Shown in pieces: positions 566 to 21,632 of a stretch of DNA of 64,000 bases (positions are counted from its first letter, which is position 1; every line of letters starts with the position of its first letter). Where the stretch lies: positions 99,872 through 163,871 of the forward strand of contig JAHQWL010000055.1 in the NCBI GenBank assembly GCA_029856155.1, in the 5' to 3' direction. Origin of the DNA: Promethearchaeia archaeon (GTDB lineage Archaea; Asgardarchaeota; Lokiarchaeia; Sigyniarchaeales; SOKP01). Both the position numbers and the translations under genes were made by a program. The notes beneath the pieces are model-generated. The model was not told the origin of the DNA. It worked only from the letters and a program-made list of their open reading frames with translations, and searched no databases.

Positions 566-1432
566 ATGAAATTAAGGGATTATCATACACACAACAGACG
601 ATGTGGACATGCGTTAGGTGAAATTGAGGATTACATAAAAGCTGCGATTGATAAGGATCTTAAAGAAATAGGGATTTCAGATCATTTTCCATTAGGAGCG
701 GTAATTGATGACCCACAATTAGCAGAATTCATTAAAAAAGCGTCAATGGAAGTTGAGGAATTCCCTAGGTATATTAAAGAAATAAAAGGACTGAAAGAAA
801 AATATAAGGATAAAATAAGCATTCGAATATCCACAGAAGTTAATTTTTACACTCCTGGAAGAGCTTTATCTCGGCAAAAGGAGGTTCTTAAACCTTTTAT
901 GGATGATATGGATTATATAATTGGGGCGATACATGATATAAAATGGCATGAGTCTCCTGTAATCGTCATGTATCCCAATGAGGAAATTCTAAGAGAGTAT
1001 GGTGGAGACAAAATTATATTAGAATATTTTAACAAGTTGATAAAACTGGTAGATTCTAATTTTTTTGATGTAATTGCTCATTTTGATTTTTATCGTATTT
1101 TATTCCGTCCAAATAATCCCGAATATTCACAGTATTTATGGCAAAAGCTCTTGGATCTATTAGACAAGATTAAAAGTCGAGGATTGGCTATTGAGATTAA
1201 TACGTCGGGATTTCTTAAAAAACTTGGAAGTCAACATCCAGATGATGAAATTATTAAAGAAATAATTCAACGTAATATTCCTCTAGTGTTAGGTTCTGAT
1301 GCTCATAGACCAAAATATGTTGGATACATGTTTCAAGAAACTATAGAAAAGTTAAGAAAATTGGGTTTATCTCATTTATGTATATATGAAAAACGTGAGC
1401 AAAAATTAGAAAAAATTTTATATCTCTTTTAA
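566..1432 (+). CDS. PHP-family histidinol-phosphatase (HisJ family)
   Basis: DYHTH, SDH, AHFD, EINT and GSDAH PHP metal-binding motifs. Confidence 0.88.
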   Translation: MKLRDYHTHNRRCGHALGEIEDYIKAAIDKDLKEIGISDHFPLGAVIDDPQLAEFIKKASMEVEEFPRYIKEIKGLKEKYKDKISIRISTEVNFYTPGRALSRQKEVLKPFMDDMDYIIGAIHDIKWHESPVIVMYPNEEILREYGGDKIILEYFNKLIKLVDSNFFDVIAHFDFYRILFRPNNPEYSQYLWQKLLDLLDKIKSRGLAIEINTSGFLKKLGSQHPDDEIIKEIIQRNIPLVLGSDAHRPKYVGYMFQETIEKLRKLGLSHLCIYEKREQKLEKILYLF

Positions 1433-1612: not shown

Positions 1613-2530
1613 TTGTTGGAATTTGGAGCGCAAATATTAAATTATTTTAACACATGGGAAGAAATCCTTCCGACGATTAAGCATATAGATGCAGGACCGT
1701 GGAGTAGCCTGATGTTCTCAGATCATTTTCTACCACCCTATCCTGGAGCAAATCTGGAAGCTGAATCTGCTTTAGAGAGCTGGACCATGCTCACGGCGAC
1801 CGCTGCTGTTACAGAACGAGTGAGATTAGCGGTGCTTGTAACAGGCAATTTATTTCGTAATCCGGCATTACTTGCTAAAATGGCTTCCACTATAGACCAA
1901 ATCTCTAAAGGTCGGCTTATCCTAGCTATTGGTGCTGGTTGGTATGAACGAGAGCATGAGGCATTCGGTTGGAACTTTCCAGGAGTTAAGGAGAGGTGTG
2001 ATCGTCTTGAAGAGGCAGTAGAGCTGATAAAAATGCTGTTTACTGCTGATGGGCCAATAGATTACAATGGTCAGTATTATAAGCTTAATCAAGCATATTT
2101 TTCGCCTCCCTGTATACAGAAGCCACATATTCCAATCATGGTTGGAGGAAATGGAGAAAAAAGGACATTACGTACACTCGCTCGTTTCGGTGATATTGCT
2201 AATATTGATCTTAATAAACCTGGAACTCCAGAATTGTTTAGACATAAACTGGATGTGATTGAACGACATTGTGAAGAACTTGGTCGTGATCCATCTGAAA
2301 TTAAAAAAACTATGGTGACTCCATTACGAATTTTTGACGATGAAAAAGAAGCTGCCCAGTATCTTGAAAAACGTGGAAGAAAAACATGGTTATACGGTAC
2401 AGTTCCATATATAATTGAACGAGTTCAGCAATATATCGATGCTGGTGCCGAGGAGATCATATTTAGTGGTCTATCCACCGTTGAATGGGCTGAGCAAGTA
2501 GAAGACAAGATTTTTCCAGCGTTTAGCTGA
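1613..2530 (+). CDS. Luciferase-like (LLM) flavin/F420-dependent oxidoreductase
   Basis: FSDHF, RNPALLAKMASTIDQISKGRLILAIGAGW, PCIQKPHIPIMVGG; TTG start after AGGAGA. Confidence 0.9.
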   Translation: MLEFGAQILNYFNTWEEILPTIKHIDAGPWSSLMFSDHFLPPYPGANLEAESALESWTMLTATAAVTERVRLAVLVTGNLFRNPALLAKMASTIDQISKGRLILAIGAGWYEREHEAFGWNFPGVKERCDRLEEAVELIKMLFTADGPIDYNGQYYKLNQAYFSPPCIQKPHIPIMVGGNGEKRTLRTLARFGDIANIDLNKPGTPELFRHKLDVIERHCEELGRDPSEIKKTMVTPLRIFDDEKEAAQYLEKRGRKTWLYGTVPYIIERVQQYIDAGAEEIIFSGLSTVEWAEQVEDKIFPAFS

Positions 2531-2598
2531 GATTTTTTTATTTTTAAAAATAAGTTCCGTGTAGTATCTTCAAATGACCAGAAAACAAATATTGAGAA

Positions 2599-3504
2599 AT
2601 GAAAGGATTAATTTATGACATTCAAAGGTTTGCCATTCATGATGGTCCAGGAATTAGGACCTTAATTTACATGAAAGGATGCCCCCTTAGATGTTTATGG
2701 TGTTCTTCACCTCACACGCAAAAAAAGTCTCCAGAAATTCTCTATCTTGAGTCAAATTGTAAAGGATGCTTGAGCTGTGTTGAGGCGTGTCCAGAAAAAG
2801 CCATTAAACTTTCTGATAATGAGAAAATAACGATAGATAGAAACATTTGTAATACCTGTGGTCAGTGTGTTGAAACATGCCCTAACGACGCTTTAAGACT
2901 TGTAGGAAAACAAATAACGGTAGAAGAACTATTCCAAGATGTAATGAAGGACAATCCCTTTTACAGAAGGTCAAAAGGAGGGGTCACGGTAGGGGGCGGT
3001 GAACCTACTATGCAACATGAATTTGTCGCGAATTTTCTTAAGAAATGTAAGGAAACGTATATTCACGCAGCAATCGAAACCTGCGGATATGCAAAATGGG
3101 AAAGTTTGGAAAATATCCTCGATTATGTAGATCTCCTCTATTTTGACATTAAGCACATGGATTCAAACATCCACAAAAAAATTACGGGGATTTCAAACGA
3201 AATAATCTTAGAGAATGCAAGAAAAGCTTCTAAATTGAAACCACTTATAATCCGCATTCCTCTAATACCGGATATTAACGATTCTGAAGAAAATATTTTA
3301 AAAACGGCAGGGTTCGCTGCCGAATTAGGAGAAAATCTACTGTGGATTGAACTTCTACCTTACCACAAGTTTGGAATTGTTACTTATGAGCAACTTGGTC
3401 GAGAGTATGAACTCAAGGATGTTGAACCTCCGAGCGAAGAACACATGAAAAAATTAAAGGCGCTCGTTGAGTCCTGTGGTGTAAAGGCTCAAATAGGTGG
3501 ATAA
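2599..3504 (+). CDS. Glycyl-radical enzyme activating enzyme (radical SAM with ferredoxin insert)
   Basis: IQRFAIHDGPGIRT, KGCPLRCLWC, two CxxCxxCxxxCP motifs, GGGEP. Confidence 0.95.
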   Translation: MKGLIYDIQRFAIHDGPGIRTLIYMKGCPLRCLWCSSPHTQKKSPEILYLESNCKGCLSCVEACPEKAIKLSDNEKITIDRNICNTCGQCVETCPNDALRLVGKQITVEELFQDVMKDNPFYRRSKGGVTVGGGEPTMQHEFVANFLKKCKETYIHAAIETCGYAKWESLENILDYVDLLYFDIKHMDSNIHKKITGISNEIILENARKASKLKPLIIRIPLIPDINDSEENILKTAGFAAELGENLLWIELLPYHKFGIVTYEQLGREYELKDVEPPSEEHMKKLKALVESCGVKAQIGG

Positions 3505-3523
3505 TACCTCTTAAAAAATCCAT

Positions 3524-5611
3524 CTACATTTTTTCGACTCGACATAAAAGAGCTTTTGTTGATACTGAAGCTGTTATTGAATCCTTTGGGCCATCGTCTG
3601 TAATTTGATTAATGTTTAACTTTTCCCACCCATCTTCTCTTCCATACCAGAACCCGTGAGGTGTGTGAACAATTTTTGGATGTGTCTCCTCGAAGTACTT
3701 AACTTTAACCTCAACTTTACCTCTTGGTGAAACCAAATGAACCCACTCTCCGTCTTCAATTCCTAGACTTTTACATGTATCAGGATGTATTTCAAGTTCA
3801 GGATCCGGTGCGTTTTTCCTAAGAGATGGAATATTTCGAAATGAGGAATGATAATAGGACAAGATTCTCCTCCCTGTGGTTAATACAAGAGGGTATTTCT
3901 TCCATAGATCAGGGGTGCTAACAGGGCTTTCTGGTGGTTCCTTATACGCAGGAATAGGATTTAAACCCCATTCTTCAAAATACTTTGGACACAATCCAAT
4001 TTTACCCGATGGTGTATTAAACCTACCCCTTTTTTCATACAATTTGTATTTCATGGGAAGAGAAAATTTGCCGACTTTTTTAAATTCCTCAAATGTCATC
4101 CCAATAGGTTCTAAGCGATAATTGAGAGATTCTTCAACTGTCTGCCAATAGTCTTTGAGACCCATTTTTTTAGCGAGTTCAACTAAGATTTCTTTTTCGC
4201 AACGACACTCTGGAACGGGTTCTACAGCTTTCACTTGACAGAAAACATGGTTTTTCATGCTCAAATCTTCAATATCATCCCTTTCTGTCCAATGCGCTGC
4301 TGGAAGCACGACATCCGCCATTTGTGTGGTAGGTGTGTGGAAGTAATCCACGGAAAATAGAAATTCTAAAGCATTTAAAGCTTCCTTGACATGTTTAGAG
4401 TTAGCATATGCACACATGGGATTAGTAGCAAACAATCCAATGGTTTTAACAGGATACGGGTCTTCCTTAAGAATAGCATCCCATACTAATTCAGGAGTTA
4501 CTGACATTCCTGTGAAGCGTATCCCTGGAAATTTATCACGACCTATTTTTTTCTTTGCTTGTTCAGCTGATAACGCGATTTCATATTGATAGTCGCCCCC
4601 ATAACAACTCCGCGCTTTTGTTGGAGGTACATGACTTACATTTCCTCCTTTAATGTCTAAATTTCCGGTAATCGCGGCTAAAATGGTGAGTGAGCGTGTG
4701 AGATCGAAAACATTAATTGATTGGCAGGCACCACCAGGACCAGGACCCATCGCAGCAGGCTTAGTTGTAGCATAGGTGATCGCTGCCGCTTCTATCTCTT
4801 CAGATGGAATCCATGTTAATTCAGCAACACGGTCCAAATTGAATTCTGAGGCACGTTCCTTTAACTGGTCAAAACCTTCGGTCCATTTTTCTACGAATTC
4901 TTTATCGTATAGTTCATTTTCAATGATTACGTTTATGAAACAAAGAGCCAATGCTACATCAGTTCCAGGTCTAATGGCAAGCCAGTGATCTGCTTTGCGT
5001 GTATATGAATTACCTCTAGGATCAACAACAATGAGTTTAGCTCCTGCTTTTAAACCTTTTCTAATGAAATAATTATAAATTCCGGGGTATGATTTTTCAG
5101 GATTATGTGCCCACAACAATATGCATTTACTATTCCCATAGTCAGGATCGAGTATTCCAAATCCAGCGGTGAGAGAGCTTGCGAGGACAATAGGAGCACC
5201 GCTCATGTGACCAGCTGACATGAAATTAGGTGTCCCAAATAGACTCATAAAGCGGTAAATCCAAGGTGGCATGCCTCTTGTCGTGCCTTGACCAAATACG
5301 ACGGATTCAGCCCCCCATTTTTCTCGCGTTTCAAGGAGTTTTTTAGCTATAGTGTCAAGAGCTTTTTCCCAAGATACTTCCTCAAACTTTCCTTCTCCTC
5401 GTTTCCCAACTCTTATCAATGGTTTGGTCAGTCGTTCAGGATGATATATTATCTCCATACATGCCCTCCCTTTTGGGCACATATATCCATGGCTTATGGG
5501 ATGGTCCTTGTCTCCTTTTACTCCCACTATTTTTCCATCTTTTACTTCGAGAAGCACACCACAACGGGAGTGACAGTCAAAACAGATCGTTCGAACAGTT
5601 TTAGTACTCAT
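3524..5611 (-). CDS. Mo/W-bisPGD oxidoreductase, acetylene-hydratase-like branch
   Basis: CFDCHSRC...CPKG Fe-S motif, RLTKPLIRVGKRGEGKF, ADVVLPA, C-terminal MGD domain (HSSFRNIPSLR..PDPELEIHP); no Tat leader. Confidence 0.9.
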   Translation of the reverse strand: MSTKTVRTICFDCHSRCGVLLEVKDGKIVGVKGDKDHPISHGYMCPKGRACMEIIYHPERLTKPLIRVGKRGEGKFEEVSWEKALDTIAKKLLETREKWGAESVVFGQGTTRGMPPWIYRFMSLFGTPNFMSAGHMSGAPIVLASSLTAGFGILDPDYGNSKCILLWAHNPEKSYPGIYNYFIRKGLKAGAKLIVVDPRGNSYTRKADHWLAIRPGTDVALALCFINVIIENELYDKEFVEKWTEGFDQLKERASEFNLDRVAELTWIPSEEIEAAAITYATTKPAAMGPGPGGACQSINVFDLTRSLTILAAITGNLDIKGGNVSHVPPTKARSCYGGDYQYEIALSAEQAKKKIGRDKFPGIRFTGMSVTPELVWDAILKEDPYPVKTIGLFATNPMCAYANSKHVKEALNALEFLFSVDYFHTPTTQMADVVLPAAHWTERDDIEDLSMKNHVFCQVKAVEPVPECRCEKEILVELAKKMGLKDYWQTVEESLNYRLEPIGMTFEEFKKVGKFSLPMKYKLYEKRGRFNTPSGKIGLCPKYFEEWGLNPIPAYKEPPESPVSTPDLWKKYPLVLTTGRRILSYYHSSFRNIPSLRKNAPDPELEIHPDTCKSLGIEDGEWVHLVSPRGKVEVKVKYFEETHPKIVHTPHGFWYGREDGWEKLNINQITDDGPKDSITASVSTKALLCRVEKM

Positions 5612-5860
5612 ACCCTACTCAATTTTAGCAATTTTAACAATTTTAGTATTTATGAATATTTCTTTATTTATAATCTTTCAAATCAGAGATTGAAAATGTT
5701 AATATCTAATCTTTTCGCTTTCCCATAAAGATATTATAATAAAAAATATTAAAATCGGAATAAAATATACAGCATATATTTAAAAATTTCTAATCCCTAA
5801 TATAAACAGTAGTTAATTTTTTCATCCTTTTAAAATAATTTAGAAGAGAAGTTTCGAAAA

Positions 5861-8335
5861 ATGGTGCAGATTATAGAGAAAGCAGATAAATCGAAACCCG
5901 AATCTTTATTGGAAAGAGTATTAACTGTACAGCCAACTGAGAGAGTGGAGAGGCATAGGCAACGCTATATAGACCGTAAACTTGTATACTCGATTGATAG
6001 AGATCGTATTGAAGTGAGGGTTATGAAGGAAACAGAAGGTGAGCCGATGATAACTCGCAAAGCGAAGCTCTTTCAAACCATAGTTAGAGAGTTACCCATC
6101 GACATCTTTCCAGATGAGCTTTTAGTCGGTTGGTATGATCCTATACCAAACAACTGCCCTCTTCCTGTAAGAAGTGACCCTAATCTAGAAAATTATCTCG
6201 ATGTTATTAGTAGTCGAGAACGCAATCCAATTTTAATTACCCCAGAACAGATGAGAGAATTAAAAGAGGAAATTATTCCCTACTGGAAGGGGCAAGGCAA
6301 TTGGGAAAGAACACGCCATGATCCTGCTCATTACAAGCCAGTTCCTAAGGGATTTACTTTTGAAAGGTGGTATAATGAGAGTAGAACGATGGCATATTGG
6401 CATATTGGTCACTTCATTCCCAATAATGAAAAAGTATTGAAAAAGGGATTTTTGGGAATAAAGAAGGATGCTGAGGAAAGGTTGGGAAGGATCGATCGGA
6501 CCAATCCTGAAGAGGTCAAAAAAATACCCTTCCTTGAAGGTGTGATTATGGTTATGGAAGCCGCAGCTTCCATCGGTAAGCGTTTTGCTACCAGGGCAAG
6601 AGAATTAGCCGAAAAGGAAGTAGATTCTAAAAGGAAGGCTGAATTACTCAAAATAGCTGAAGTGTGCGATTGGGTACCCGCAAATCCCGCGAGAACATTC
6701 TACGAAGCGATACAATCAATCTGGTTTTCACATATCCTTCATTGGTGGGAAATCCGTGATGTGGCATCCATTAGTCCTGGAAGAATGGATCAGTATCTGT
6801 ATCCTTACTATGAAGCCGATATAAGAGAGGGGAGAATTACCAAAAATGAAGCACAGGAACTTATTGATTGCTTCCTTCTAAGACCTTCATGGTTTCTTTA
6901 TAGTTTAAACACCCCAAAAGGTTATCTTCTAACGGATACTGCCGGAATTGCACAGCATGTTGATGTAGGTGGTCTCAGATCAGATGGAACCGATGCTACT
7001 ACTGAACTTTCATACATGATTCTTGAGGGTATGATGCATACCAGATTAGTAGAACCTGATGTAGGAATCTTGCTTCACAGTAGAACACCTGAAGATCTCC
7101 TCATTAAGGCCTGTCAGCTTTGTGCACTTGGAACAGGTCATCCTGAATTTCTCAATCATGATAACTTTATTGTTAATCTCCTTGGCCGAGCGACATACGG
7201 TGGAGATTCACCAATAACACTGGAGATTGCCAGAAAGGCTAGTGCAATGGGCTGCGCTGAGCCATCTTTAGCTGGTATGGATTCTGGGTATTGTACCTCA
7301 GTTTATATCCCATTACTTCCAGGAGTCTTAATATCGGTGTTGACAAATGGAAGGAGGGGCTGGCTCGAAGGAATTACAGCTCCTAAAACCGGAGATCCTA
7401 ACAACTTCAAAAGCTTTGAAGAATTACGGGAAGCATTTAGAAAACAACTCGTCTGGGGATTTGATATGGAGACAATTGCCACCAATATTGGCGAGAGACT
7501 TATGGCCGAATACGACCCAACTATATATCAATCAGCACTCATAGAGGACTGCATTGAAAAAGGGTTATGCAGGGAAGAAGGTGGAGCTAGGTTTAATTTT
7601 GGGCCATTCGTATCATGTGTTGGTGTTACCGATGTCGGAGATTCCTTGGCCGCTATTAAAAAACTTGTGTTTGAAGAAAAAAAGATTACTATAGACCAGT
7701 TGGTCGATGCATTGGATAAGAATTTTGAAGGTTACGAAGACTTGCGCCAAATGTTGTTAAAAGTACCTAAATTTGGAAATGACAACGACTATGCCGATGA
7801 ACAAACAGCGTGGGTAATGCGCACTTTCGCTCAAGAAGCGATAAAACAAAAAAATACGCGTGGTGGTCGAAAAATACCGGTTCACATACCTTTAAGTAGC
7901 TATGTCAGAGCTGGTGCGGCTGTAGGAGCACTCCCTTCTGGAAGACTAGCCGAAGAACCGCTAGCAGATTCACTCGCGCCCACGAAAGGTAGCGATGTTA
8001 GTGGTCCTACTGCGGTTTTCAAGTCAGTAGGTAAGATCAACCATGCCGAGGTTTTCGCAGGAATTTCCTGCAATATGAGGCTAGATCCAGTGATGTTCAA
8101 GGAAGATTATGGCTTCAAAAGGTTTGCAGATCTAATGAGAGTTTTTGTCGACCAGAAAATACATCATATCCAGTTTAATGTAATTTCATCAGATACATTA
8201 AAGGCAGCCCAAAAAGAACCCGATAAATACAGGGATTTAATGGTGAGAGTAGCTGGGTATGTAGCTCGATTTGTTGAGCTGCCTGAGTCGGTACAAGATA
8301 GTATTATCGATCGAACGGTACATGGTTCATATTAA
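5861..8335 (+). CDS. Glycyl-radical enzyme (PFL2/eliminase class), substrate unknown
   Basis: C-terminal RVAGY glycyl motif, Cys loop GCAEP, SPGRMDQYLYPYY, KFGNDND. Confidence 0.95.
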   Translation: MVQIIEKADKSKPESLLERVLTVQPTERVERHRQRYIDRKLVYSIDRDRIEVRVMKETEGEPMITRKAKLFQTIVRELPIDIFPDELLVGWYDPIPNNCPLPVRSDPNLENYLDVISSRERNPILITPEQMRELKEEIIPYWKGQGNWERTRHDPAHYKPVPKGFTFERWYNESRTMAYWHIGHFIPNNEKVLKKGFLGIKKDAEERLGRIDRTNPEEVKKIPFLEGVIMVMEAAASIGKRFATRARELAEKEVDSKRKAELLKIAEVCDWVPANPARTFYEAIQSIWFSHILHWWEIRDVASISPGRMDQYLYPYYEADIREGRITKNEAQELIDCFLLRPSWFLYSLNTPKGYLLTDTAGIAQHVDVGGLRSDGTDATTELSYMILEGMMHTRLVEPDVGILLHSRTPEDLLIKACQLCALGTGHPEFLNHDNFIVNLLGRATYGGDSPITLEIARKASAMGCAEPSLAGMDSGYCTSVYIPLLPGVLISVLTNGRRGWLEGITAPKTGDPNNFKSFEELREAFRKQLVWGFDMETIATNIGERLMAEYDPTIYQSALIEDCIEKGLCREEGGARFNFGPFVSCVGVTDVGDSLAAIKKLVFEEKKITIDQLVDALDKNFEGYEDLRQMLLKVPKFGNDNDYADEQTAWVMRTFAQEAIKQKNTRGGRKIPVHIPLSSYVRAGAAVGALPSGRLAEEPLADSLAPTKGSDVSGPTAVFKSVGKINHAEVFAGISCNMRLDPVMFKEDYGFKRFADLMRVFVDQKIHHIQFNVISSDTLKAAQKEPDKYRDLMVRVAGYVARFVELPESVQDSIIDRTVHGSY

Positions 8336-8373
8336 TAATTGTTAATTTTAAAAATTTATTTCTTTTTTTAACT

Positions 8374-9285
8374 TTAGATAAATTCTGAGAGGATCTCATT
8401 ATTTAAACGCTTATATAGTTCCGCTTTGGATGGGACGCTCCCAAAAATGAGCTCTTCAACACCAACATCCAAATATTCTTGGATGCGATTGATAATAAAA
8501 GAGGTAGAGCCAGTTAACGTCCAATCTCCTCGTATTTTGCGATATCTTATTGCTTTTTTCTCGTCATTTTCTAGATGAATGGGCATATGTAAAGTCTTCT
8601 TTATTTCCTTTGGATCACGCCCAAATTCTTCACAGTGGCGCTCTAAGACTTCAATTTTACGTTTAAACATTTCGGGGGATCCTGGTGCGTTAAAATCAAG
8701 ATTACAAATATCTCCAAACCTTGCCAATGTTCTTAATGTTCGTTTTTCTCCGTTTCCTCCTATTAAAATCGGCATATGTGGTTTCTGCGTACAAGGCGGT
8801 GAAAAGTAAGCGTTTTTCAGCGTGTAATACTGTCCATTGTAACTAACTGGTCCTTCTGTTGTAAAGAGTAACTTGATCAGCTCTACTGCCTCTTCGAGAC
8901 GATCGCTTCGTTCTTTAGCACTTGGAAATTCCCAACCGAAGGCTTCATATTCTCGCTTATACCAACCGGCGCCAATTCCAAGGATAAACCGACCACCTGA
9001 AATTTGGTCCACGGTTGCCGCCATCTTTGCTAATAAGGCAGGATTGCGGTATGTATTGCCTGATACAAGAACACCTAATCGTAAGCGCTCTGTAACTGTA
9101 GCAGCTGCAGTTATAAGCGACCACCCCTCTAAAGCATCTTTATGCTCTACATTATCTCCAATTGGTGGAAAAAAATGGTCCGAGACCCAAAGACTGGACC
9201 ACGGTCCTGACTCTACAGTTTTAATTGTGGAAAGAATACTTTCCCATGAGGTCAAATAATTATTTATCTGGGCACCAAATTGCAT
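8374..9285 (-). CDS. Luciferase-like (LLM) flavin/F420-dependent oxidoreductase, paralog of 1613..2530
   Basis: WVSDHF, YRNPALLAKMAATVDQISGGRFILGIGAGW; collinear with the first LLM. Confidence 0.9.
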   Translation of the reverse strand: MQFGAQINNYLTSWESILSTIKTVESGPWSSLWVSDHFFPPIGDNVEHKDALEGWSLITAAATVTERLRLGVLVSGNTYRNPALLAKMAATVDQISGGRFILGIGAGWYKREYEAFGWEFPSAKERSDRLEEAVELIKLLFTTEGPVSYNGQYYTLKNAYFSPPCTQKPHMPILIGGNGEKRTLRTLARFGDICNLDFNAPGSPEMFKRKIEVLERHCEEFGRDPKEIKKTLHMPIHLENDEKKAIRYRKIRGDWTLTGSTSFIINRIQEYLDVGVEELIFGSVPSKAELYKRLNNEILSEFI

Positions 9286-9399
9286 TGATAATCCTCTTCT
9301 ATTACATAAAAGTTAATTCTTAAATTAGATTTTTTAAATAATAATAGTTTTTTTAAAATTTAATAGTTGTTTTATTGCTTTCAAGATTTATAATATTCA

Positions 9400-11079
9400 A
9401 TGTCAAAAAAAATACATGGTGGAGATATTTTAGTTAAATGTCTCCTTGAGGAGAATGTTAAATACTTGTTTGGGATTCCTGGTGGTCAACTCCTCCCAAT
9501 GTATGACGCAATTTATCAATGGGGTAGAGAAAAAGGAATTAGTACCGTATTATTTCGCCACGAACAAGTTGCAGCTCACGCAGCTGATGCTTATGCCCGA
9601 GTCACTAATACACCTGGGGTATGTTTTGGAACTGTAGGACCAGGAGCTTTGCACCTATTACCTGGAATAGGAGCTGCGTGGAGCGATAATGTTCCGGTAG
9701 TTGCTATAGTACCCCAGGTAAATGCACAATATGAAGATTCTTTCATTCTCCAAGGTAATTTAGATCAGATTGCATTGTTCAAACCAATTACTAAGTATCA
9801 AAAGTCGATTAGAAGAATAGAAGAAATTCCTGATGCTGTACATAAGATATTTCGAGAAGTAAGTAGTGGACGACCACAACCTGTGGTTTTGGAGGTTTTT
9901 TCGGATGCATTTTATGATAACATTGAAGAAGATCATTTATCTATCTTGCCTTCTAATCAATATCGAGCAATAAAAAAACCTGCTGTAGATATCTCTTTAA
10001 TAAAAGAATCTCTGGAATTACTAATATCAGCTAAAAAACCACTAATCGTATCTGGTGGCGGAGTTTTAAGAGCTGAAGCATGGAACGAGTTAAAGGAGCT
10101 TGCTGAATATTTACAAATACCCGTTATTACAAGCCTTGGAGGAACAGGATCTTTTTCGAATAAATCTAAATGTTTTCTTGGGGGTTTAAATTTGTTTTCA
10201 GTCCAAGCTACGGTAGGAGCAGATGTAGTATTAGCCCTTGGTGTTAAATTTTCATATACCTTAGCACTCGGAAAACCACCAGCTTGGGAGGATTCTCAAA
10301 AATTAATCCATGTTGATATAGATCCATCCATAATTGGAAGATCGAAACCAATAACATTGGGTATTGTAGCTGATTGCAAACAATATTTAACACAATTACT
10401 AACAGAACTAAAAAAAAGTATTCATGTTGAAAAAAGAGATTGGTTGGAAACTTTAGTCACCAATAAAAAAAAATATCACGCTACTTTTATAAAAAAAGCT
10501 AACACCAATGAAATTCCGATTACTCCTGTAAGAATGGTTAAAGAAGTTTATGAATTTATGGATGAGGATGCTATTTTAATCACCGATGGAGGAGACCTTA
10601 CTGTTTTTGCGGTAGAATCTATAAACTTATATAAGGATCGAAAACCCTTATCATACCTTCAAGCAATTGGGATGGGACACCTTGGTGTATCCGTAGGCTA
10701 CGGAATTGGGGCAAAGTTAGGAAAACCTGATAAACAGGTGATTGCTATCTGTGGAGATGGGAGCTTCATGATAAACATCCAAGATTTAGAAACAGCAGTC
10801 AGATTAGGATTGAAAAATTTAATTTTTATAATTGGGAACAATTCTTGCTGGGGAATGATTAAGAGTGACCAAGTTTTTAAATTTAATAATCGCTTTATTG
10901 ACGTAGACTTGCCTTATTGCAATTTCGGGAAAATAGCTGAATCCTTTGGATGCTACGGTGAGGAAGTTGTAGATCCTAATGAAATTAATCCTGCTTTAGA
11001 GCGTGCAAAAAATTCGGAAAAACCCGCGGTTATAGATGTTAAAATTAAATTTGAAAGCTCCAGTATGTCTGGAGGATAA
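9400..11079 (+). CDS. Thiamine-diphosphate enzyme (acetolactate synthase / 2-hydroxyacyl-CoA lyase superfamily)
   Basis: RHEQVAAHAADAYAR, TVGPG, GDGSF...NNSCWG ThDP motif. Confidence 0.9.
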   Translation: MSKKIHGGDILVKCLLEENVKYLFGIPGGQLLPMYDAIYQWGREKGISTVLFRHEQVAAHAADAYARVTNTPGVCFGTVGPGALHLLPGIGAAWSDNVPVVAIVPQVNAQYEDSFILQGNLDQIALFKPITKYQKSIRRIEEIPDAVHKIFREVSSGRPQPVVLEVFSDAFYDNIEEDHLSILPSNQYRAIKKPAVDISLIKESLELLISAKKPLIVSGGGVLRAEAWNELKELAEYLQIPVITSLGGTGSFSNKSKCFLGGLNLFSVQATVGADVVLALGVKFSYTLALGKPPAWEDSQKLIHVDIDPSIIGRSKPITLGIVADCKQYLTQLLTELKKSIHVEKRDWLETLVTNKKKYHATFIKKANTNEIPITPVRMVKEVYEFMDEDAILITDGGDLTVFAVESINLYKDRKPLSYLQAIGMGHLGVSVGYGIGAKLGKPDKQVIAICGDGSFMINIQDLETAVRLGLKNLIFIIGNNSCWGMIKSDQVFKFNNRFIDVDLPYCNFGKIAESFGCYGEEVVDPNEINPALERAKNSEKPAVIDVKIKFESSSMSGG

Positions 11080-11097
11080 TCGTTAAGTAATTAATTG

Positions 11098-12417
11098 TTA
11101 ATCAAATTTAAGAGAATACAAAATATCTCTTAAATTTTCAGAATAATAATTAGCGTTGGCATAAATGCTAATGACAATCCGATGATCATCTTTTTCAACC
11201 GAAAGATGGATGCTTATAATCTTAAAAATACCTGCGTATTTATATTCAATAACACTTTCATAAGCAGGTGTTCCGTCTCTTAAAGTTTTCGGTTCATTGG
11301 AAATAATATTTATATCTCTTGCTATATCCTTGATTCGTCCTGCAATTTGTTGGGCAGTTTCATCTAATGGTCGATCATGTATCGAAGATTTAATAACAGA
11401 AATCAAAAGATCAATACCAGGCTCTTTAGTGGCAATTAAGACCGGTTTATTCTCTGGAAAGTTCATTGGGTTTGGTTTCAATTCTATAAAACTTTCGGGG
11501 TAATATATGGAAAAAACAGGCGTATAGCTTTTAAAGATCTTCGATTTTTTTTCACTTTTTGCCTTAAATCCTTCATGCAATTCTAAAGTATCTTCACTAA
11601 TGCACTCAAACCGAGACTTTACCAATGGTATGTATTCTGGATGAGTTAAAACATAAAATATGTCGTTTTTAATTGCTTTAATCACTAATTCTGCCAAATA
11701 TTCTGGAGCCATTGCTCCCGCCAAGATTCTATTCATATTTTCCCTACTAATTTCTGATTGTTTAATCGTTTCTGCTGGTGGTTGCCAAACACCTGGTCGG
11801 TTTTGTCTAAATATATGTGTATTATTTATAATATTTGTATTAACACGCCCAGGACAAACTACAGATACGCCCACATTTGTATTAAAGCATTCTAAAGCCA
11901 AAGATTCAGAAATTGCGATTACAGCGGATTTAGATGTAGGATATGGTGAATTGTCACCTGAAAGTAATCCTGCCATTGATGAAGTATTAACAATATGGCA
12001 TGGTTCTTCACTTGTTAACATTCGATTTAAAAAATGTTGAATACCATAGATAACCCCAAAAACATTAACACCAAGAATCCAATTCCAATTTTCAAGTGTA
12101 ATTAAACTAATGCGCCCAGCTCCTCCGACCCCCGCATTGTTACAAAGTATATTTACGGACCCAAAACGTTCATAAGAAGCATCTGCTAATTGGGCCACCT
12201 GTTCTGGGTCACTCACATCTGTTATTTGAGTCATTACTTCAGTCCCGATTTCTTCAAGTTCTTTTGCTACCTTATCTAGATTTTCTTTATCGATGTCTGC
12301 TAGGACAATTTTCATCCCCCGTTTAGCAAAACCATAAGCAAGTCCACGCCCAATACCACTTGCCGCTCCCGTAATTACAGCAACCTTTCCTTTAAAATCT
12401 TTTATCATAATGTTCAC
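11098..12417 (-). CDS. SDR oxidoreductase with ~150-aa C-terminal extra domain (PsbP/DcrB-like)
   Basis: TGAASGIG, NNAG, YPTSK; the SDR ends near residue 280 and is followed by a beta-rich domain. Confidence 0.85.
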   Translation of the reverse strand: MNIMIKDFKGKVAVITGAASGIGRGLAYGFAKRGMKIVLADIDKENLDKVAKELEEIGTEVMTQITDVSDPEQVAQLADASYERFGSVNILCNNAGVGGAGRISLITLENWNWILGVNVFGVIYGIQHFLNRMLTSEEPCHIVNTSSMAGLLSGDNSPYPTSKSAVIAISESLALECFNTNVGVSVVCPGRVNTNIINNTHIFRQNRPGVWQPPAETIKQSEISRENMNRILAGAMAPEYLAELVIKAIKNDIFYVLTHPEYIPLVKSRFECISEDTLELHEGFKAKSEKKSKIFKSYTPVFSIYYPESFIELKPNPMNFPENKPVLIATKEPGIDLLISVIKSSIHDRPLDETAQQIAGRIKDIARDINIISNEPKTLRDGTPAYESVIEYKYAGIFKIISIHLSVEKDDHRIVISIYANANYYSENLRDILYSLKFD

Positions 12418-12561
12418 ATCAATTTATATTCGAAATTAGACCTTCTTTACTTAAAAGAAATTCATACTATGCTAATATGCCAAAGCTGTTAAATATAATA
12501 AAACTTAGTTACATATAATTTTCTATAAAAATCACTGATTATTATATATAAAAACTTAAAA

Positions 12562-13332
12562 GTGAAACATATGGAAGTATTAGATGGGAAAGTAGCCTTA
12601 ATAACTGGTGGCTCGAGTGGTATTGGGAAATGTATCGCTCTAACATATGCCAAAGCAGGAGCCAGTGTTGTGGTTGCAAGCCGAAAACAGGAGAATCTCG
12701 ATAAAGTAGTTGAAGAAATCAGAGCATTTGGGAGGGAATCGCTTGCTATATCTACTGATGTTAAGATTCCGGAACAGGTTGAAAATATGGTTAAACAAAC
12801 AGTAGATCATTTTGGACGACTTGATATAATGGTTAACAACGCTGGTAGGGGGATCCCGACTCAACCATTAGATATCTCTGTCAAAGAATGGAATCATGTC
12901 CTTGCTCTCAATCTCACGGGGGTTTTTCTTGGAAGTTTGGCTGCTGGTAAGGTAATGATTGAGCAGAAACAAGGTAAAATTATCAATATAGCCTCAACGG
13001 CGGGAGTTATAATGTCTCCGGGAATGATGCATTATTCTGTTGCAAAAGCAGGTGTCATCATGCTAACTAAAAATTTAGCAGCTTCATGGGCGGAGCATAA
13101 CATTAATGTAAATTGTATTGCTCCGGGGTTCACATTGACCGAAAGAATAATACAATGGGGGATATTAGCTCCTGAACAATATGATGATAGTACACCTCGA
13201 CTATTACGTCCTCCAGTTCCTAAAAATATCGCTGATCTGGCTCTTTTTCTCGCTTCGCCAGCGTCCGATCAAATAACCGGTGAACTTCTAATTATAAGGA
13301 GTCATTTTTCTTGGGATCGTGGATCCCAATAA
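12562..13332 (+). CDS. Classical SDR oxidoreductase
   Basis: TGGSSGIG, NNAG, YSVAK. Confidence 0.9.
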   Translation: MKHMEVLDGKVALITGGSSGIGKCIALTYAKAGASVVVASRKQENLDKVVEEIRAFGRESLAISTDVKIPEQVENMVKQTVDHFGRLDIMVNNAGRGIPTQPLDISVKEWNHVLALNLTGVFLGSLAAGKVMIEQKQGKIINIASTAGVIMSPGMMHYSVAKAGVIMLTKNLAASWAEHNINVNCIAPGFTLTERIIQWGILAPEQYDDSTPRLLRPPVPKNIADLALFLASPASDQITGELLIIRSHFSWDRGSQ

Positions 13333-13414
13333 ATATACAATATAAATTTATATTTAATGTGATTTTTTCTATAGTATCTTAATAAGAAAAAAGAAGTATT
13401 TAGGGAAAAACCCG

Positions 13415-14779
13415 ATGAAAGAAATAGATTTATTCGATAAGATTTATGGAGCTTGGACTGGAAAAGTTGCGGGAGGTACATTTGGGATGCCAGTTGAGGG
13501 AAGATCTCGCGTTGTCATTACTAACATGCACCCTCCTTTAGACGGATGGAGCAAGCATCATAAACAAGGTATAAATGATGATGAACAATATGAATTAATA
13601 ACTATATTAGCATTAGAAGAATTAAGTGATGATGAATTTGCGAATAAGTTTAAAGCGGGAACAATTTTGGAACCAGACTATCTTGGATCATATTGGTTGA
13701 AGTATTTACTCCCTCAGTATGTATTTACAGCAGAAAAAGCAGCGTATGATAACGCAAAAGATGGTGTCCCTTGGGAACATGCAGGTGATTACGTTTATGA
13801 GCATAAAGGTAAAGTCTATGGAAATGAGTATGCTGATTGGATTGGAGCACAAATGAAGGGAGAATTATATGGAATGTTACTCCCTGCATGGGGTTGGTAT
13901 GAAGATTCCAAAAATGATCTAGAATTATTAAAACCATGCTTAGATTTATCACTTCAAGATGCAATAATTGCTCATAGAGAGGTAGGAATTGTAGGGGAAT
14001 TATTCATCTCAGCCATTATTGCAGTAGCAATAGCACATAACCCATTTGAATATAAGGAAGAGATAAACTTCCCAAAGTCAGCAGTTCATAGATGGGATAA
14101 GGAAGAAGACGAGATTTCTGAAGGATTTAAGCAACAAGTTGACCAGGCGGGGATTTGTTCTGAAACTATAATCAGTGATATTAAACGCATTAAATCAGTC
14201 TTGCTAGAATATGCTTCTTTAAAAGATTCGATATCAACTGAAGACGTAGAAGTATATTATAGCTTTATTGATCCTATAATCGATACCTACCTCGATAATC
14301 CAGATTCAAGAGAGTGGGAAACCAATTTTTATGCTAAAACTAAAAAAGATTGGCAAAAAACTTTGGATGGTTTATGGTGGCTATTTGAAAGAAAAATGGT
14401 AAAAGATGCAATTTCCAGATTTAAAGATTTTCCAAGCATGCTCGAACGACGATTAAATTCCTTTAGTAAAAGTAAAGCTGTTCATACATTATTCAATAAT
14501 GGTGCAATTATTGTCGGTTTATTATATGGGGATGGAGATTTCATTCAGACGGTGCGTATTAGTACCTTATGTGGAGCTGATACCGATTGCAATGCTGGCA
14601 ACGCAGGAGCAATCATTGGTGCTTATTTAGGTCAGAAATTAATTCCATCATATGCGAAGCGTTTCATTCGCGGAGAAATAATACCTGGTCTTAAGGAATG
14701 GAAAGATAAATCAATATACAACCTTGCAGAGAGAACACTAACTCAAGCAGAACGTTTCAAGAGGTTTATGTCCCTTTAA
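13415..14779 (+). CDS. ADP-ribosylglycohydrolase family protein
   Basis: KIYGAWTGKVAG..GMPVEG, NDDE, WIGAQM, CGADTDCNAGNAGAIIG. Confidence 0.85.
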   Translation: MKEIDLFDKIYGAWTGKVAGGTFGMPVEGRSRVVITNMHPPLDGWSKHHKQGINDDEQYELITILALEELSDDEFANKFKAGTILEPDYLGSYWLKYLLPQYVFTAEKAAYDNAKDGVPWEHAGDYVYEHKGKVYGNEYADWIGAQMKGELYGMLLPAWGWYEDSKNDLELLKPCLDLSLQDAIIAHREVGIVGELFISAIIAVAIAHNPFEYKEEINFPKSAVHRWDKEEDEISEGFKQQVDQAGICSETIISDIKRIKSVLLEYASLKDSISTEDVEVYYSFIDPIIDTYLDNPDSREWETNFYAKTKKDWQKTLDGLWWLFERKMVKDAISRFKDFPSMLERRLNSFSKSKAVHTLFNNGAIIVGLLYGDGDFIQTVRISTLCGADTDCNAGNAGAIIGAYLGQKLIPSYAKRFIRGEIIPGLKEWKDKSIYNLAERTLTQAERFKRFMSL

Positions 14780-14831
14780 CATTCCGTAAATATTTATTTT
14801 CTAAATTCCTATAACTTTAAGAGAGAATAAT

Positions 14832-15824
14832 ATGTTGAAAAAAGACTGGCAATTGCATCACGTTTGTCTCGTTGTTAGGAACTGGAATAACGCTTTGGAT
14901 TATTATCAAAGTACAAGAATGGGGTTAAGTGTAGGTCCTCAAGCAATGTACATGGATTATCGGCATGGCGGACCCGCCGATATCTACGCTAATGATAAAG
15001 TTCCAAGGGTAAGTGGTGGTTCTGGACCAGGAAAACCTCTGAAAGTGGAATCAAAACAAGGAAGAAGAGAAAATAACTATAAGTTTATGGATAAAGACTG
15101 CCTAGTTGGGGATCTACTCCTTGAAATTGGGGAAAATCAAGGTATTCCATTAGAGGGAATTACCCACGTATGTTTCAATGTCCCAGATATCTACGCAGAA
15201 ACGGATAAACTGCTGAAAAAAGGCTGCGATCTCATGTGGAGTATTACTCAGGGTGATAATCTTTTGGAAAATCACATCGACACTCGTAAGTATGGTAACG
15301 TGGATATATCATTCAGACCTCCTGTACTCAAGCTTGAAAGAGCATGGTTAGATCATCATCTTTCGTATCCTTATCTAAAGGATTGGAAATTCCATGGAAT
15401 TGGTATTGGAGTTCGGGATCTTGATAAAGCAGTTGAATACTACGAGATGCTGGATATTATCGATTTTCAAAACGAAACTGATCTTGATGGCAATTCACTT
15501 GACTCAATTAACGTATCAAGCGAAACTATAGATTTAAATTTCAAGACGAGAGCCATTGTTGGTAAAATTGGTCCAATGGCTTTTGAGTTTATTCAACCTC
15601 TTGAAGGAAATTCTGTCTATCAAGAATCCCTTGACAGTAGAGGTGAAGGTGTTGCCGATCTTGCCTTTACAGTAGAGGATCTCGAGAAAGAAGCCGCAAC
15701 CATGATATATAGGGGCATCCCCGTAGTACTCAGCGGTAAACCTAAGAATGGTCCTGCCTTTGCTCGCTTTGATACTCGTAAAAATAGCGGTAATATCATG
15801 ATAAGACTGATCCAAAGAGAATAA
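14832..15824 (+). CDS. Tandem VOC-family (glyoxalase / methylmalonyl-CoA epimerase-like) protein
   Basis: Two repeats: LHHVCLVVRN...GITHVCFNV and FHGIGIGVRDLDKA...EFIQPLEG..RGEGVADLAFTVEDL. Confidence 0.75.
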   Translation: MLKKDWQLHHVCLVVRNWNNALDYYQSTRMGLSVGPQAMYMDYRHGGPADIYANDKVPRVSGGSGPGKPLKVESKQGRRENNYKFMDKDCLVGDLLLEIGENQGIPLEGITHVCFNVPDIYAETDKLLKKGCDLMWSITQGDNLLENHIDTRKYGNVDISFRPPVLKLERAWLDHHLSYPYLKDWKFHGIGIGVRDLDKAVEYYEMLDIIDFQNETDLDGNSLDSINVSSETIDLNFKTRAIVGKIGPMAFEFIQPLEGNSVYQESLDSRGEGVADLAFTVEDLEKEAATMIYRGIPVVLSGKPKNGPAFARFDTRKNSGNIMIRLIQRE

Positions 15825-15831
15825 TAGAAAA

Positions 15832-16545
15832 ATGGATACTGAAAAAATATGGAAAGAAGGTGAATGGACAATTGAAGCACGTCAGATAATTGATGGGCTT
15901 AAAGAGTTCCCTGACAATTCAAAAATAATCCTAATTTTAAGACATTCCCATCGAAATGAACCGACAGCATTAGAAAAAGCTCAAAAATTAAGATTAACAC
16001 CCCAAGGTCATACAATTGCTAAGAAGTTCGGCGAGAATTTACCTATTAATAGACCTATCAACATTTTCCACAGCATTATATGGCGATGCAAAGAAACGGC
16101 TCAAAATATTCATGAGGGATTTAAAAATATTGGCGGAACAAGTGAAATAAAGGGAGTACTTACAGCTCTCGCTGATGTTGGAATTACTAATAGGGAGTTT
16201 TTTTTGAATGAATTTAATAATTTTCCTGTACTTGACACCTTTTATCGATGGGTGGTTGGTCATTATGATCTTATTTATTGGAAACCGTTCATCGAGTATT
16301 GTCAATCAACTGCTCTCACTATTCTGGACCAAGTTAAAACCTCTCCTGAAAATGGGTTGAATATTTTTGTAACTCATGACTTTAATGTAATGGCTCTTAG
16401 ATTTGGATGGTTTGCGCTTCTACCAGACAAATGGGTGAAATTTCTAGGTGGATTTGCATTCACGATAGAAGAGGATCAAATCTTGCTTTTAGATTATGGC
16501 GAATTAAAACCAGTACCAATTCCATATTGGTGGAAAAAATCATGA
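15832..16545 (+). CDS. Histidine phosphatase superfamily protein
   Basis: ILRHS, LTPQG, RCKETA, FVTHD motifs. Confidence 0.85.
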   Translation: MDTEKIWKEGEWTIEARQIIDGLKEFPDNSKIILILRHSHRNEPTALEKAQKLRLTPQGHTIAKKFGENLPINRPINIFHSIIWRCKETAQNIHEGFKNIGGTSEIKGVLTALADVGITNREFFLNEFNNFPVLDTFYRWVVGHYDLIYWKPFIEYCQSTALTILDQVKTSPENGLNIFVTHDFNVMALRFGWFALLPDKWVKFLGGFAFTIEEDQILLLDYGELKPVPIPYWWKKS

Positions 16546-19234: not shown

Positions 19235-19246
19235 CTTTTAAACCTC

Positions 19247-20980: not shown

Positions 20981-20995
20981 ATTTAATTCTCCTAG

Positions 20996-21076
20996 TTACT
21001 CTTTGCTACAGAAATTCATTGAGTTTAAATCATCATGGATGACAAACCTCTGAATGTCGTAAATAAATCCTTTCAT
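20996..21076 (-). pseudogene. 5' stub of a glycyl-radical activating enzyme paralog
   Basis: Reads MKGFIYDIQRFVIHD then diverges and stops; 51/56 nt identical to 2589..2644 including the upstream ATATTGAGAA. Confidence 0.85.
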
Positions 21077-21180
21077 TTCTCAATATCTATGTTCTGTACA
21101 TATGTGGATAAAATCTTGAATTTCTTTATTTAAATAAACAAAACGTTTAAATGTTAAGTGTTAAGTTGATTTTTAAGTTT

Positions 21181-21495
21181 TTAATGATTTTTGGGATGTA
21201 AAAACTTCAACCAATAAGATCCAAGATAGTTTGGTTCCAAAATTGTCCCGGCTTTTAACCTATTAGCAAAATCATCATCACTTAATGCTTCTAATGCTAA
21301 TAAAGATATCAATTCATATTGTTCATCATCATTTACAACTTGTCTATGATGCTTGCTCCATCCGCTTAAAGAAGGGTGCATATTAGTAATGACTTCGCGA
21401 CGTTTTCCTTCGACAGGCATCCCAAATGTGCCTCCTGCAATTTTTCCTGTCCAGCTACCCCAAATTTTTTGGAGCAAAAAATTTTTATCAACCAT
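21181..21495 (-). pseudogene. 3'-truncated paralog of ADP-ribosylglycohydrolase 13415..14779
   Basis: 104 aa collinear with the first ~100 aa of the intact gene (KIWGSWTGKIAGGTFGMPVEG...NDDEQYEL...LGSYWLK), then stops. Confidence 0.85.
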
Positions 21496-21632
21496 AATCT
21501 ATCCTAATTTTTTCTTTAATGCTTAATTTAAAAAACATAGTAAAGTCTTAAATTTATATTAAATTTTATAAATAGACATATTATATTAGGATTAATATTT
21601 ATTTAATTTTTTGGAAAACAGTAGAATTCAAC

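Follow-up and report, generated by a model that had tools for sequence, protein, structure and literature searches.

A candidate laterally mobile catabolic module built around an uncharacterised glycyl radical enzyme in Lokiarchaeia

Are the genes for a glycyl radical enzyme (GRE), a molybdenum/tungsten (Mo/W) enzyme, two luciferase-like oxidoreductases (LLM1 and LLM2) and a thiamine diphosphate (ThDP) enzyme, standing side by side in an Asgard archaeon, parts of one anaerobic pathway or casual neighbors? This question is raised by a 64,000-nucleotide stretch (hereafter the window) of contig JAHQWL010000055.1 (positions 99,872 to 163,871, forward strand) from assembly GCA_029856155.1 of a Promethearchaeia archaeon, for which a sequence-only reading had proposed a six-gene unit serving a new anaerobic route. 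All six open reading frames (ORFs) are present in the order and on the strands first read: LLM1 (1613..2530, + strand), the GRE activase of the radical S-adenosylmethionine (SAM) type (2599..3504, +), the single-subunit Mo/W-bis(pyranopterin guanine dinucleotide) enzyme, below the Mo enzyme (3524..5611, −), the eliminase-type GRE (5861..8335, +), LLM2 (8374..9285, −) and the ThDP enzyme of the acetolactate synthase superfamily (9400..11079, +). Between the divergently oriented Mo and GRE genes lie 249 bp (5612-5860; about 250 bp had been estimated), and the two LLMs, described as paralogs, share 62% identity. We lean towards the view, drawn mainly from gene content and its recurrence, that these genes belong to a multi-gene module for anaerobic catabolism, laterally mobile among Lokiarchaeia of marine sediments and built around an uncharacterised GRE, which probably represents an undescribed breakdown route; literature searches on GREs combined with F420 or luciferase-like enzymes, molybdopterin, short-chain dehydrogenases (SDRs), thiamine, or Asgard archaea and Lokiarchaeota brought up no description of such a cluster.

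Recurrence of the gene association is the central argument. In the metagenome loci compared, where genes were scored within the available flank, an ortholog of the Mo enzyme with at least 80% identity occurs in 17 loci and is accompanied by an LLM gene in 15 of them and by a GRE gene in 10, while neither LLM nor GRE appears in any of the 63 loci carrying Mo homologs of 64% identity or less. Several of the loci derive from marine sediment at the sulfate-methane transition zone. One locus (L054, P0127; loci are cited by these numbers throughout) has its Mo gene at the contig start, leaving a single flank visible. No GRE lies near the 62% Mo homologs in the host's own genus, nor near the copy of Desulfosudis oleivorans. 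Two further genes of the window, located downstream of the initially outlined block, take part in this association: SDR2 (12562..13332, +), a classical 256-aa short-chain dehydrogenase (Pfam adh_short), is the most widely conserved partner of the GRE, while a two-domain VOC (glyoxalase-fold) protein (14832..15824, +; Pfam Glyoxalase_4 and Glyoxalase) has orthologs of 64-78% identity in all five architectures described below, as SDR2 has at 76-87%. Even a Dehalococcoidia metagenome-assembled genome (MAG) carries a 64% GRE beside a 61% SDR2 ortholog. A second GRE subfamily (GRE'), with a GCYEP loop, a KVAGY motif and 51-54% identity to the window GRE, often adjoins the window-type GRE and has accessory genes in common with it.

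The order of the window, designated architecture A, is seen in L006, L007, L009, L011, L055-L060, L075, L079, L089 and L091, and close GRE homologs (83-94%) keep it in full: LLM1, activase, Mo enzyme, GRE, LLM2, ThDP enzyme, long SDR, SDR2. Architecture B (L001, L008, L012) combines LLM, GRE (75-78%), VOC and SDR2 without Mo, activase or ThDP genes. In architecture C (L041), SDR2 and GRE' (52%) are followed by VOC, Mo (81%) and GRE (80%), the last three being codirected; architecture D (L053, L064, L083) comprises SDR2, GRE' (51%), an LLM2-type gene, Mo (83%), an LLM1-type gene, PHP and VOC; architecture E (L061, L062) runs LLM1, GRE (80%), Mo (87%), sulfatase, SDR2, GRE', VOC; and a further order, GRE, GRE', LLM2, Mo, is found in L063. 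The recurrent core thus consists of GRE or GRE', the Mo enzyme, both LLM types, SDR2 and VOC. Random patchwork around the closest GRE homologs, the outcome that would have spoken against a unit, is not observed, since these homologs keep their neighbors and the Mo-GRE-LLM combination reappears in rearranged orders. The six-gene unit as first drawn stands as to its recurrent association and has to be redrawn as to its membership: activase and ThDP genes are mainly a feature of architecture A, while SDR2 and VOC belong to the core. In L041 the VOC gene lies directly upstream of the Mo gene, and we considered whether such pairing is general in the Mo subfamily; no VOC ortholog was found beside Mo homologs of 52-64% identity, and the pairing was observed only in the module (L041).

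Gaps between other convergent or divergent neighbors of the block measure 18-144 bp. For the divergent Mo-GRE intergenic region, alignment of ten architecture-A loci revealed invariant blocks, including one containing TTTAAAAATTT some 60-70 bp upstream of the GRE start, and these conserved A/T-rich blocks may be regarded as candidate promoters.

The next point is whether the cassette has moved between genomes. The host is represented by a 4.10-Mb assembly with 30% GC and 97% completeness from a Lokiarchaeia-type class, of which 161 species genomes were compared. Relatives of the GRE with 72-95% identity are found in Promethearchaeota and Hodarchaeales MAGs, those with 58-65% in Dehalococcoidia and Desulfobacterota. 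Near-orthologs occur in just four of the 161 class genomes: two copies (94% and 83%) come from another genus, and the one carried by a congener (78%) is of architecture B. Mo orthologs of at least 90% identity are, among the class genomes, limited to the host and the other-genus genome with the 94% GRE. At the DNA level the cassette matches the latter with 86.6% identity along 7.8 kb and with 89% along another 3.1 kb, against a background, calculated for 132 ORFs from 18 other contigs of that genome, of 66% median best-hit protein identity to the host with no ORF reaching 90%. Cassette DNA identity so far above the genomic protein background indicates that the cassette was laterally transferred between Lokiarchaeia genera. 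The horizontal acquisition suspected at the outset is in this way borne out by composition, patchy distribution and DNA identity above background, and the block that had looked GC-rich by eye indeed is (0.379 in 1613-16545 versus 0.327 in the rest of the window and 0.300 in the genome). GC content at third codon positions (GC3) places LLM1, activase, Mo, GRE, LLM2, SDR2 and VOC between the 97th and 99.5th percentiles of 1519 host ORFs of at least 300 aa; it is raised for core genes in other Asgard hosts too. That high GC3 is a trait of host GREs was rejected, the six other paralogs being ordinary in this respect. The raised GC3 fits an origin from a higher-GC genome, with gene-specific codon bias as the alternative.

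Traces of rearrangement are preserved near the cassette. Using blastn and tblastn, relics corresponding to residues 6-101 of an ADP-ribosylglycohydrolase and residues 1-15 of the activase were detected at 21032..21477 (− strand) in the gap 20981-21632, just before the acyl-CoA ligase gene; the ADP-ribosylglycohydrolase relic retains 76% identity and no stop. They are the remnant of a second copy of the cassette left end, a scar showing that the region has been rearranged. In relatives the ligase gene directly follows the phosphatase-fold gene; in the window an ABC exporter pair (16685-20980) is placed between them. The tRNA scan of the window found no tRNA gene that could mark an integration site, and the Rfam scan of positions 1-24000 returned no RNA family at E-values up to 0.1.

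What reaction could the central enzyme catalyze? The GRE bears the glycine-radical motif RVAGY with radical site G799 and matches the PFL-like (PF02901, 6.2e-170) and Gly_radical (PF01228, 2.4e-28) domains, which qualifies it as a member of the superfamily; its cysteine loop GCAEP, with a single cysteine in C465-A-E467, is the C-x-E loop of eliminases. According to alignment with solved structures, H184 takes the place of His164 in glycerol dehydratase (GD), His160 in HypD, Asp216 in CutC and Gln193 in IslA, and is invariant across 110 aligned GRE homologs; S303 aligns with GD Ser282, A302 stands at the position of GD His281 and HypD Asp278, T479 at that of GD Asp447, and W180 at that of IslA Arg189. 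All C-O-cleaving eliminase GREs retain the CXE motif, and in GD the proton of the C1 hydroxyl is taken up by Glu435, the hydroxyl that leaves being protonated by His164 (2026 GRE review, PMC13450708). With both the C-x-E loop and H184 kept, the catalytic pair of a dehydratase-type eliminase is thus present. Nevertheless, the protein scores below every NCBIfam equivalog cut-off, at approximately half their values, which leaves it outside choline TMA-lyase CutC (TIGR04394, 507.6 with a cut-off of 1050), hydroxyproline dehydratase HypD (NF043068, 530 with 1100) and the sulfonate-cleaving GREs, the isethionate and DHPS lyases IslA/IseG and HpsG (NF048011, 548 with 1000). It also stays below the cut-off for the GD/propanediol dehydratase (PD) group (TIGR01774 for the PFL2/glycerol-dehydratase subfamily, 548.6 with 678.2). 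Together with replacement of the substrate residues of known classes, this places the GRE beyond the characterised classes, as had been anticipated.

Charged groups of the substrate are bound by Asp216 in CutC (trimethylammonium), by Asp278 in HypD (amine) and by Arg189 and Gln193 in IslA (sulfonate). The module GRE carries neither an acidic nor a basic side chain (Asp or Arg) at these positions, and this limited set suggests a neutral substrate. Sulfonate, amine and quaternary-amine substrates were considered and dropped, as the binding residues of IslA, HypD and CutC are missing. Homologs with 76% identity or more form a clade that shares the fingerprint [WFY]-H-A-[SA]-C-[AN]-E-[CT]-T-[YH]; in the family at 53-60% identity the pocket is highly variable (GCHE, GCHH, GCNE, GCIE, GCLE) and the His invariant. 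This family is a large, diversified radiation without assigned function. Seven GRE paralogs and four activases are encoded by the host itself, and none of the other six GREs exceeds 35% identity to that of the window. Elsewhere, up to five or more GRE paralogs are arrayed on single Asgard contigs (L002, 3860-22457; also L041, L061 and L063). The activase combines the radical SAM motif CX3CX2C, in the form CPLRCLWC, with two ferredoxin-like Cys motifs and is recognized as a GRE activase by TIGR02494 (362 versus a cut-off of 174.35).

The Mo enzyme belongs to the MopB superfamily by virtue of its Molybdop_Fe4S4 (PF04879), Molybdopterin (PF00384) and Molydop_binding (PF01568) domains and the 4Fe-4S cysteines C10, C13, C17 and C45. 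No twin-arginine leader is present on it, and no Fe-S, membrane or other partner-subunit gene was found among the surrounding ORFs. Among solved structures in the PDB it matches acetylene hydratase best (2e7z, 1.6e-108, full-length), so the label "acetylene-hydratase-like" holds for overall similarity and fails at the active site, where both defining residues are replaced: Ser137 stands at the position of the tungsten ligand Cys141 and His14, within the motif CFDCHSRC, at that of the water-activating Asp13. None of the 120 homologs with at least 59% identity departs from this Ser and His, and together they make up a separate, widespread Ser-type subfamily distinct from acetylene hydratase; its members come from Desulfobacterota (D. 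oleivorans included), Spirochaetota, Thor- and Hodarchaeota and other uncultured anaerobes. Being the most conserved protein of the module (87-94% identity compared to 71-86% for the activase orthologs and 69-79% for those of LLM1), the Mo enzyme appears to be under strong constraint. Two other MopB-family enzymes are encoded on the same contig, one at window positions 45405-47654 (749 aa, 30% identical to the cassette enzyme) and another upstream (contig positions 74867-76951). In the same branch of bis(molybdopterin guanine dinucleotide) enzymes, the characterised proteins nearest to acetylene hydratase are the catechol dehydroxylases; those of Gordonibacter are small, predicted soluble and devoid of twin-arginine translocation (Tat) signals, with homologs in environmental anaerobes and archaea (PMC7028382).

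As for redox partners, both LLMs match Pfam Bac_luciferase and the F420-class family TIGR03560 (cut-off 231.4 bits; 232.4, marginally, for LLM1 and 245.3 for LLM2). The pair has no other close copy, the next-best one in the host genome being 31% identical; LLM1 orthologs are detected in architectures A, D and E, and LLM2 orthologs share 83-91% identity. F420 biosynthesis genes, the search for which had been suggested, are present in the host, with cofG (368 bits), cofH (457), cofD (311) and cofE (273) each above its cut-off, and make F420 dependence of both LLMs plausible. Some 7 kb separate the cofG-cofH pair from a different GRE-activase pair of the host (contig C44, 64560-66669 and 73341-76262). 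The ThDP enzyme contains the N, M and C TPP domains of Pfam and remains below all NCBIfam cut-offs (best 399.9 versus 866 and 399.6 versus 538), so it is a superfamily member rather than an acetolactate synthase equivalog. Beyond architecture A, its gene is encountered as a 69% ortholog beside a 71% Mo homolog in L042 (a contig of GCA_030605085.1), with no GRE within 8 kb, which points to a possible Mo-ThDP sub-module. L042 also carries a second ThDP gene and genes for an MFS transporter, a GH63-like protein, a Zn-dependent alcohol dehydrogenase (ADH) and FAD/CCG oxidases.

The module could operate as follows. The activase, going by its family membership, would install the glycyl radical on G799, and the GRE, judging by its retained C-x-E loop and His164 equivalent, would act as a C-O-cleaving 1,2-eliminase: C465 would abstract hydrogen from a hydroxyl-bearing carbon, E467 deprotonate that hydroxyl, and H184 protonate the neighboring leaving group, giving a carbonyl product. 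Both LLMs and the SDR would work on the same carbon skeleton, either creating alcohol and ketone groups there or using them up. The Ser-ligated Mo/W enzyme, presumably not respiratory, may carry out another step at a C-O bond, be it hydration or reductive dehydroxylation, by analogy with the acetylene hydratase/catechol dehydroxylase branch. The VOC protein may isomerise or cleave an alpha-hydroxy-carbonyl intermediate, and in architecture A the ThDP enzyme could break a C-C bond beside a carbonyl. The more specific proposal, in which GRE dehydration by one or two paralogs is coupled to Ser-ligated Mo/W C-O cleavage and F420 redox steps so that the laterally exchanged module frees a refractory compound of the sediment from its hydroxyl or ether groups, is tentative, and we would sooner expect some part of it to fail than all of it to hold. 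If true, no earlier GRE pathway of archaea would have had partners that can be defined, and reactions new to their own families would be catalyzed by the GRE, by the Mo enzyme and by the LLMs.

As to the substrate, we would commit ourselves only to a neutral hydroxylated compound, probably a diol or polyol derived from carbohydrates or from ether or ester lipids; this is a weak assignment, in which such diols and polyols rank above polyphenols. Hints of polar compounds or glycans come from Opp-type ABC importer genes (L006, L007, L008, L041, L061), sulfatases (L041, L054, L061) and GH32, GH29 (fucosidase) and GH63-like genes in the flanks (L008, L001, L042). Lipids or esters are hinted at by beta-lactamase-fold genes (L001, L008, L041, L061) and a COesterase-family gene (L001), which may encode esterases, and by a long-chain acyl-CoA ligase above its equivalog cut-off (window, L007, L061).

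Several observations weigh against a single dedicated pathway. The flanking genes just listed point to conflicting substrates, the glycan side opposing the lipid/ester side. The activase adjoins the module only in architecture A, many loci of which are close kin and not independent observations; the different gene orders constitute the stronger evidence. Architecture B lacks the Mo gene and L042, within 8 kb, the GRE gene, so not every part is obligatory; the genes are distributed over alternating strands, implying at least seven transcription units; and LLM1 clears the TIGR03560 cut-off by only 1 bit. In the host MAG (97% complete) there is no MoaA above the cut-off and no MoaC, MoaE or MoeA_N, which leaves maturation of the Mo enzyme in the host unexplained; yet the host encodes five MopB-family proteins and an aldehyde ferredoxin oxidoreductase (AOR). 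Among congeners MoaC and MoeA are each found in 39 of 53 genomes, MoaC and two MoeA genes being clustered together, while 13 have neither, some of these being rated 100% complete. Either an assembly segment is missing or some members of the genus scavenge the cofactor.

These difficulties invite other explanations of the same genes. One might suppose that they are simply co-inherited within a recombination-prone catabolic island without a common pathway, GRE, SDR and LLM forming one unit and Mo with ThDP another. The GRE without Mo in architecture B, the pairing of Mo (71%) with ThDP (69%) but no GRE within 8 kb in L042, the alternating strands and the relics and scars of frequent rearrangement are all in line with such a picture; still, Mo orthologs of at least 80% identity stand beside GRE or LLM genes in 15 of 17 loci and in several orders, against none of 63 for distant homologs, and VOC, Mo and GRE are codirectional in L041. 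That the same set stays together after repeated reshuffling speaks for selection on the set, and we consider the island explanation rather unlikely. A polyphenol or aromatic route seems improbable to us as well. In it the Mo enzyme would be a small soluble reductase of the catechol dehydroxylase type, dearomatisation or reduction of the ring would fall to the LLMs (with F420H2) and the SDR, the reduced ring would lose its hydroxyls to the GRE and its paralog, and the ThDP enzyme would open a cyclic 1,2-dione. The best PDB match being an acetylene hydratase whose hydratase residues are nevertheless replaced is compatible with this, and the sharing of one accessory set by GC[AN]EP and GCYEP GREs fits stepwise removal of several hydroxyls. 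VOC folds, moreover, commonly bind catechols. The weight is reduced by the flanking glycoside hydrolases, sulfatases and acyl-CoA ligase, which do not indicate aromatics, and we know of no GRE eliminase acting on reduced aromatic rings. Kinship with the catechol dehydroxylases, the nearest characterised relatives of acetylene hydratase and in Gordonibacter likewise small, Tat-less and soluble (PMC7028382), favors the route, while the small 4Fe-4S partner gene of Gordonibacter has no counterpart in the module.

Two annotations that would assign a ready-made function fare worse. Asgard GREs have been designated alkyl- or benzylsuccinate synthases activating hydrocarbons, as proposed for Hermodarchaeota, from identities of 29-38% to AssA, BssA and Archaeoglobus fulgidus PflD (PMC8163825), and the long-chain acyl-CoA ligase and beta-oxidation genes nearby would suit such a role. 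For the GRE clade of the module this annotation is not favored and we give it very little credence, as eliminases of the PDB match at 1e-145 to 1e-130 compared to 4.6e-90 for MasD and 1e-82 for the alpha subunit of benzylsuccinate synthase, the eliminase Glu of C-x-E and the His164 equivalent are kept, and no small-subunit genes were noticed beside the GRE in the ORF list, in which small ORFs were not specifically examined. That the Mo enzyme is a true acetylene hydratase supplying acetaldehyde is hardly credible: 2e7z is its best solved relative at 1.6e-108 over the full length, and the layout (cytoplasmic single subunit, one 4Fe-4S cluster, Lys48 equivalent) is the same, but the exchange of ligand Cys141 for Ser and of catalytic Asp13 for His in the query and in all 120 homologs leaves the defining residues absent.

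The remaining genes of the block are peripheral or confined to architecture A. Upstream of LLM1, a PHP-domain phosphatase of the HisJ family (566..1432, +; Pfam PHP; TIGR01856, 166 versus a cut-off of 90) has orthologs of 72-75% identity adjoining the LLM1-type gene in L053 and L083. Between the ThDP gene and SDR2 lies the long SDR of 439 aa (11098..12417, −), with adh_short at residues 11-199 and a C-terminal extension, conserved at 78-86% in architecture A only. An ADP-ribosylglycohydrolase-family protein of 454 aa (13415..14779, +; Pfam ADP_ribosyl_GH), peripheral as well, is likewise restricted to this architecture, and in relatives its gene is located upstream of LLM1. A weak histidine-phosphatase-fold protein of 237 aa (15832..16545, +; His_Phos_1 below cut-off), also peripheral, has orthologs of 75-83% in L001, L007, L009 and L061. 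The AOR, ADH and acyl-CoA genes to which carbonyl products had been suggested to flow are indeed in the window, 12-25 kb off: AOR at 31112-32974, an iron-containing ADH and beta-oxidation genes. A 493-aa HpaB-family protein (49813-51294) is encoded amid beta-oxidation-type genes; the HpaB family includes 4-hydroxybutyryl-CoA dehydratase. At 36269-37939, a 556-aa fusion joins an aldo-keto reductase with a 4Fe-4S dicluster and a GyrI-like/Cass2 effector-binding domain, and the same fusion occurs near the GRE in L001 (14115-15785).

The interest of the module is best seen against the state of the field, where, according to the 2026 GRE review, all functionally characterised PFL-like GREs come from bacteria and those of archaea form an open gap (PMC13450708). 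It offers a concrete archaeal GRE target with defined partners and supplies a functional setting for acetylene-hydratase-like Mo/W enzymes of the Ser type, a large branch to which no reaction has been assigned. It is also relevant to the diet of Asgard archaea in marine sediments and to the spread of such abilities among their lineages, and the number of its parts is small enough for expression and assay in vitro.

Comparison with known systems delineates what is shared and what is peculiar. B12-independent GD and PD (PDB 1R8W and 5I2A) have the same fold, RVxG motif and single Cys in C-x-E, equivalents of His164 (H184) and Ser282 (S303), and a dedicated activase with extra Fe-S motifs; the module GRE departs from them by Ala and Thr in place of the diol-binding residues GD His281 and Asp447, respectively, by an archaeal host, by the absence of microcompartment genes in the module, and by partnership with a Mo enzyme and F420-type LLMs. 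CutC, HypD and IslA/HpsG are likewise eliminase-type GREs with a C-x-E loop (PDB E-values 1e-145 to 1e-123), whereas in the module Asp216 of CutC gives way to His, Asp278 of HypD to Ala, and Arg189 and Gln193 of IslA to Trp and His. A. fulgidus PflD (2F3O) and the Hermodarchaeota "Ass/Bss" GREs resemble the module GRE in being archaeal, PFL-like and of unsettled function (PMC13450708, PMC8163825), but the bacterial eliminases match more strongly than 2F3O (1.1e-113), and Mo or LLM partners are not described for those genes. The LLM fold is shared, as a distant relation, with the F420-dependent alcohol dehydrogenase Adf (1RHC; 2.4e-21 to LLM2) and the F420-dependent glucose-6-phosphate dehydrogenase FGD (7.5e-19 to LLM2). 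Compared by description, the Gordonibacter dehydroxylases Dodh, Cldh and Hcdh are, like the Mo enzyme, small, Tat-less and predicted soluble, with C-O chemistry on an organic substrate (PMC7028382), and differ by an adjacent small 4Fe-4S protein gene of their own, which the module lacks. Acetylene hydratase of Syntrophotalea acetylenica (2E7Z), finally, shares with the Mo enzyme the cytoplasmic single-subunit layout, the N-terminal 4Fe-4S cluster and the Lys48 equivalent, and is set apart from it by Cys141 and Asp13, where the enzyme of the module carries Ser137 and His14.

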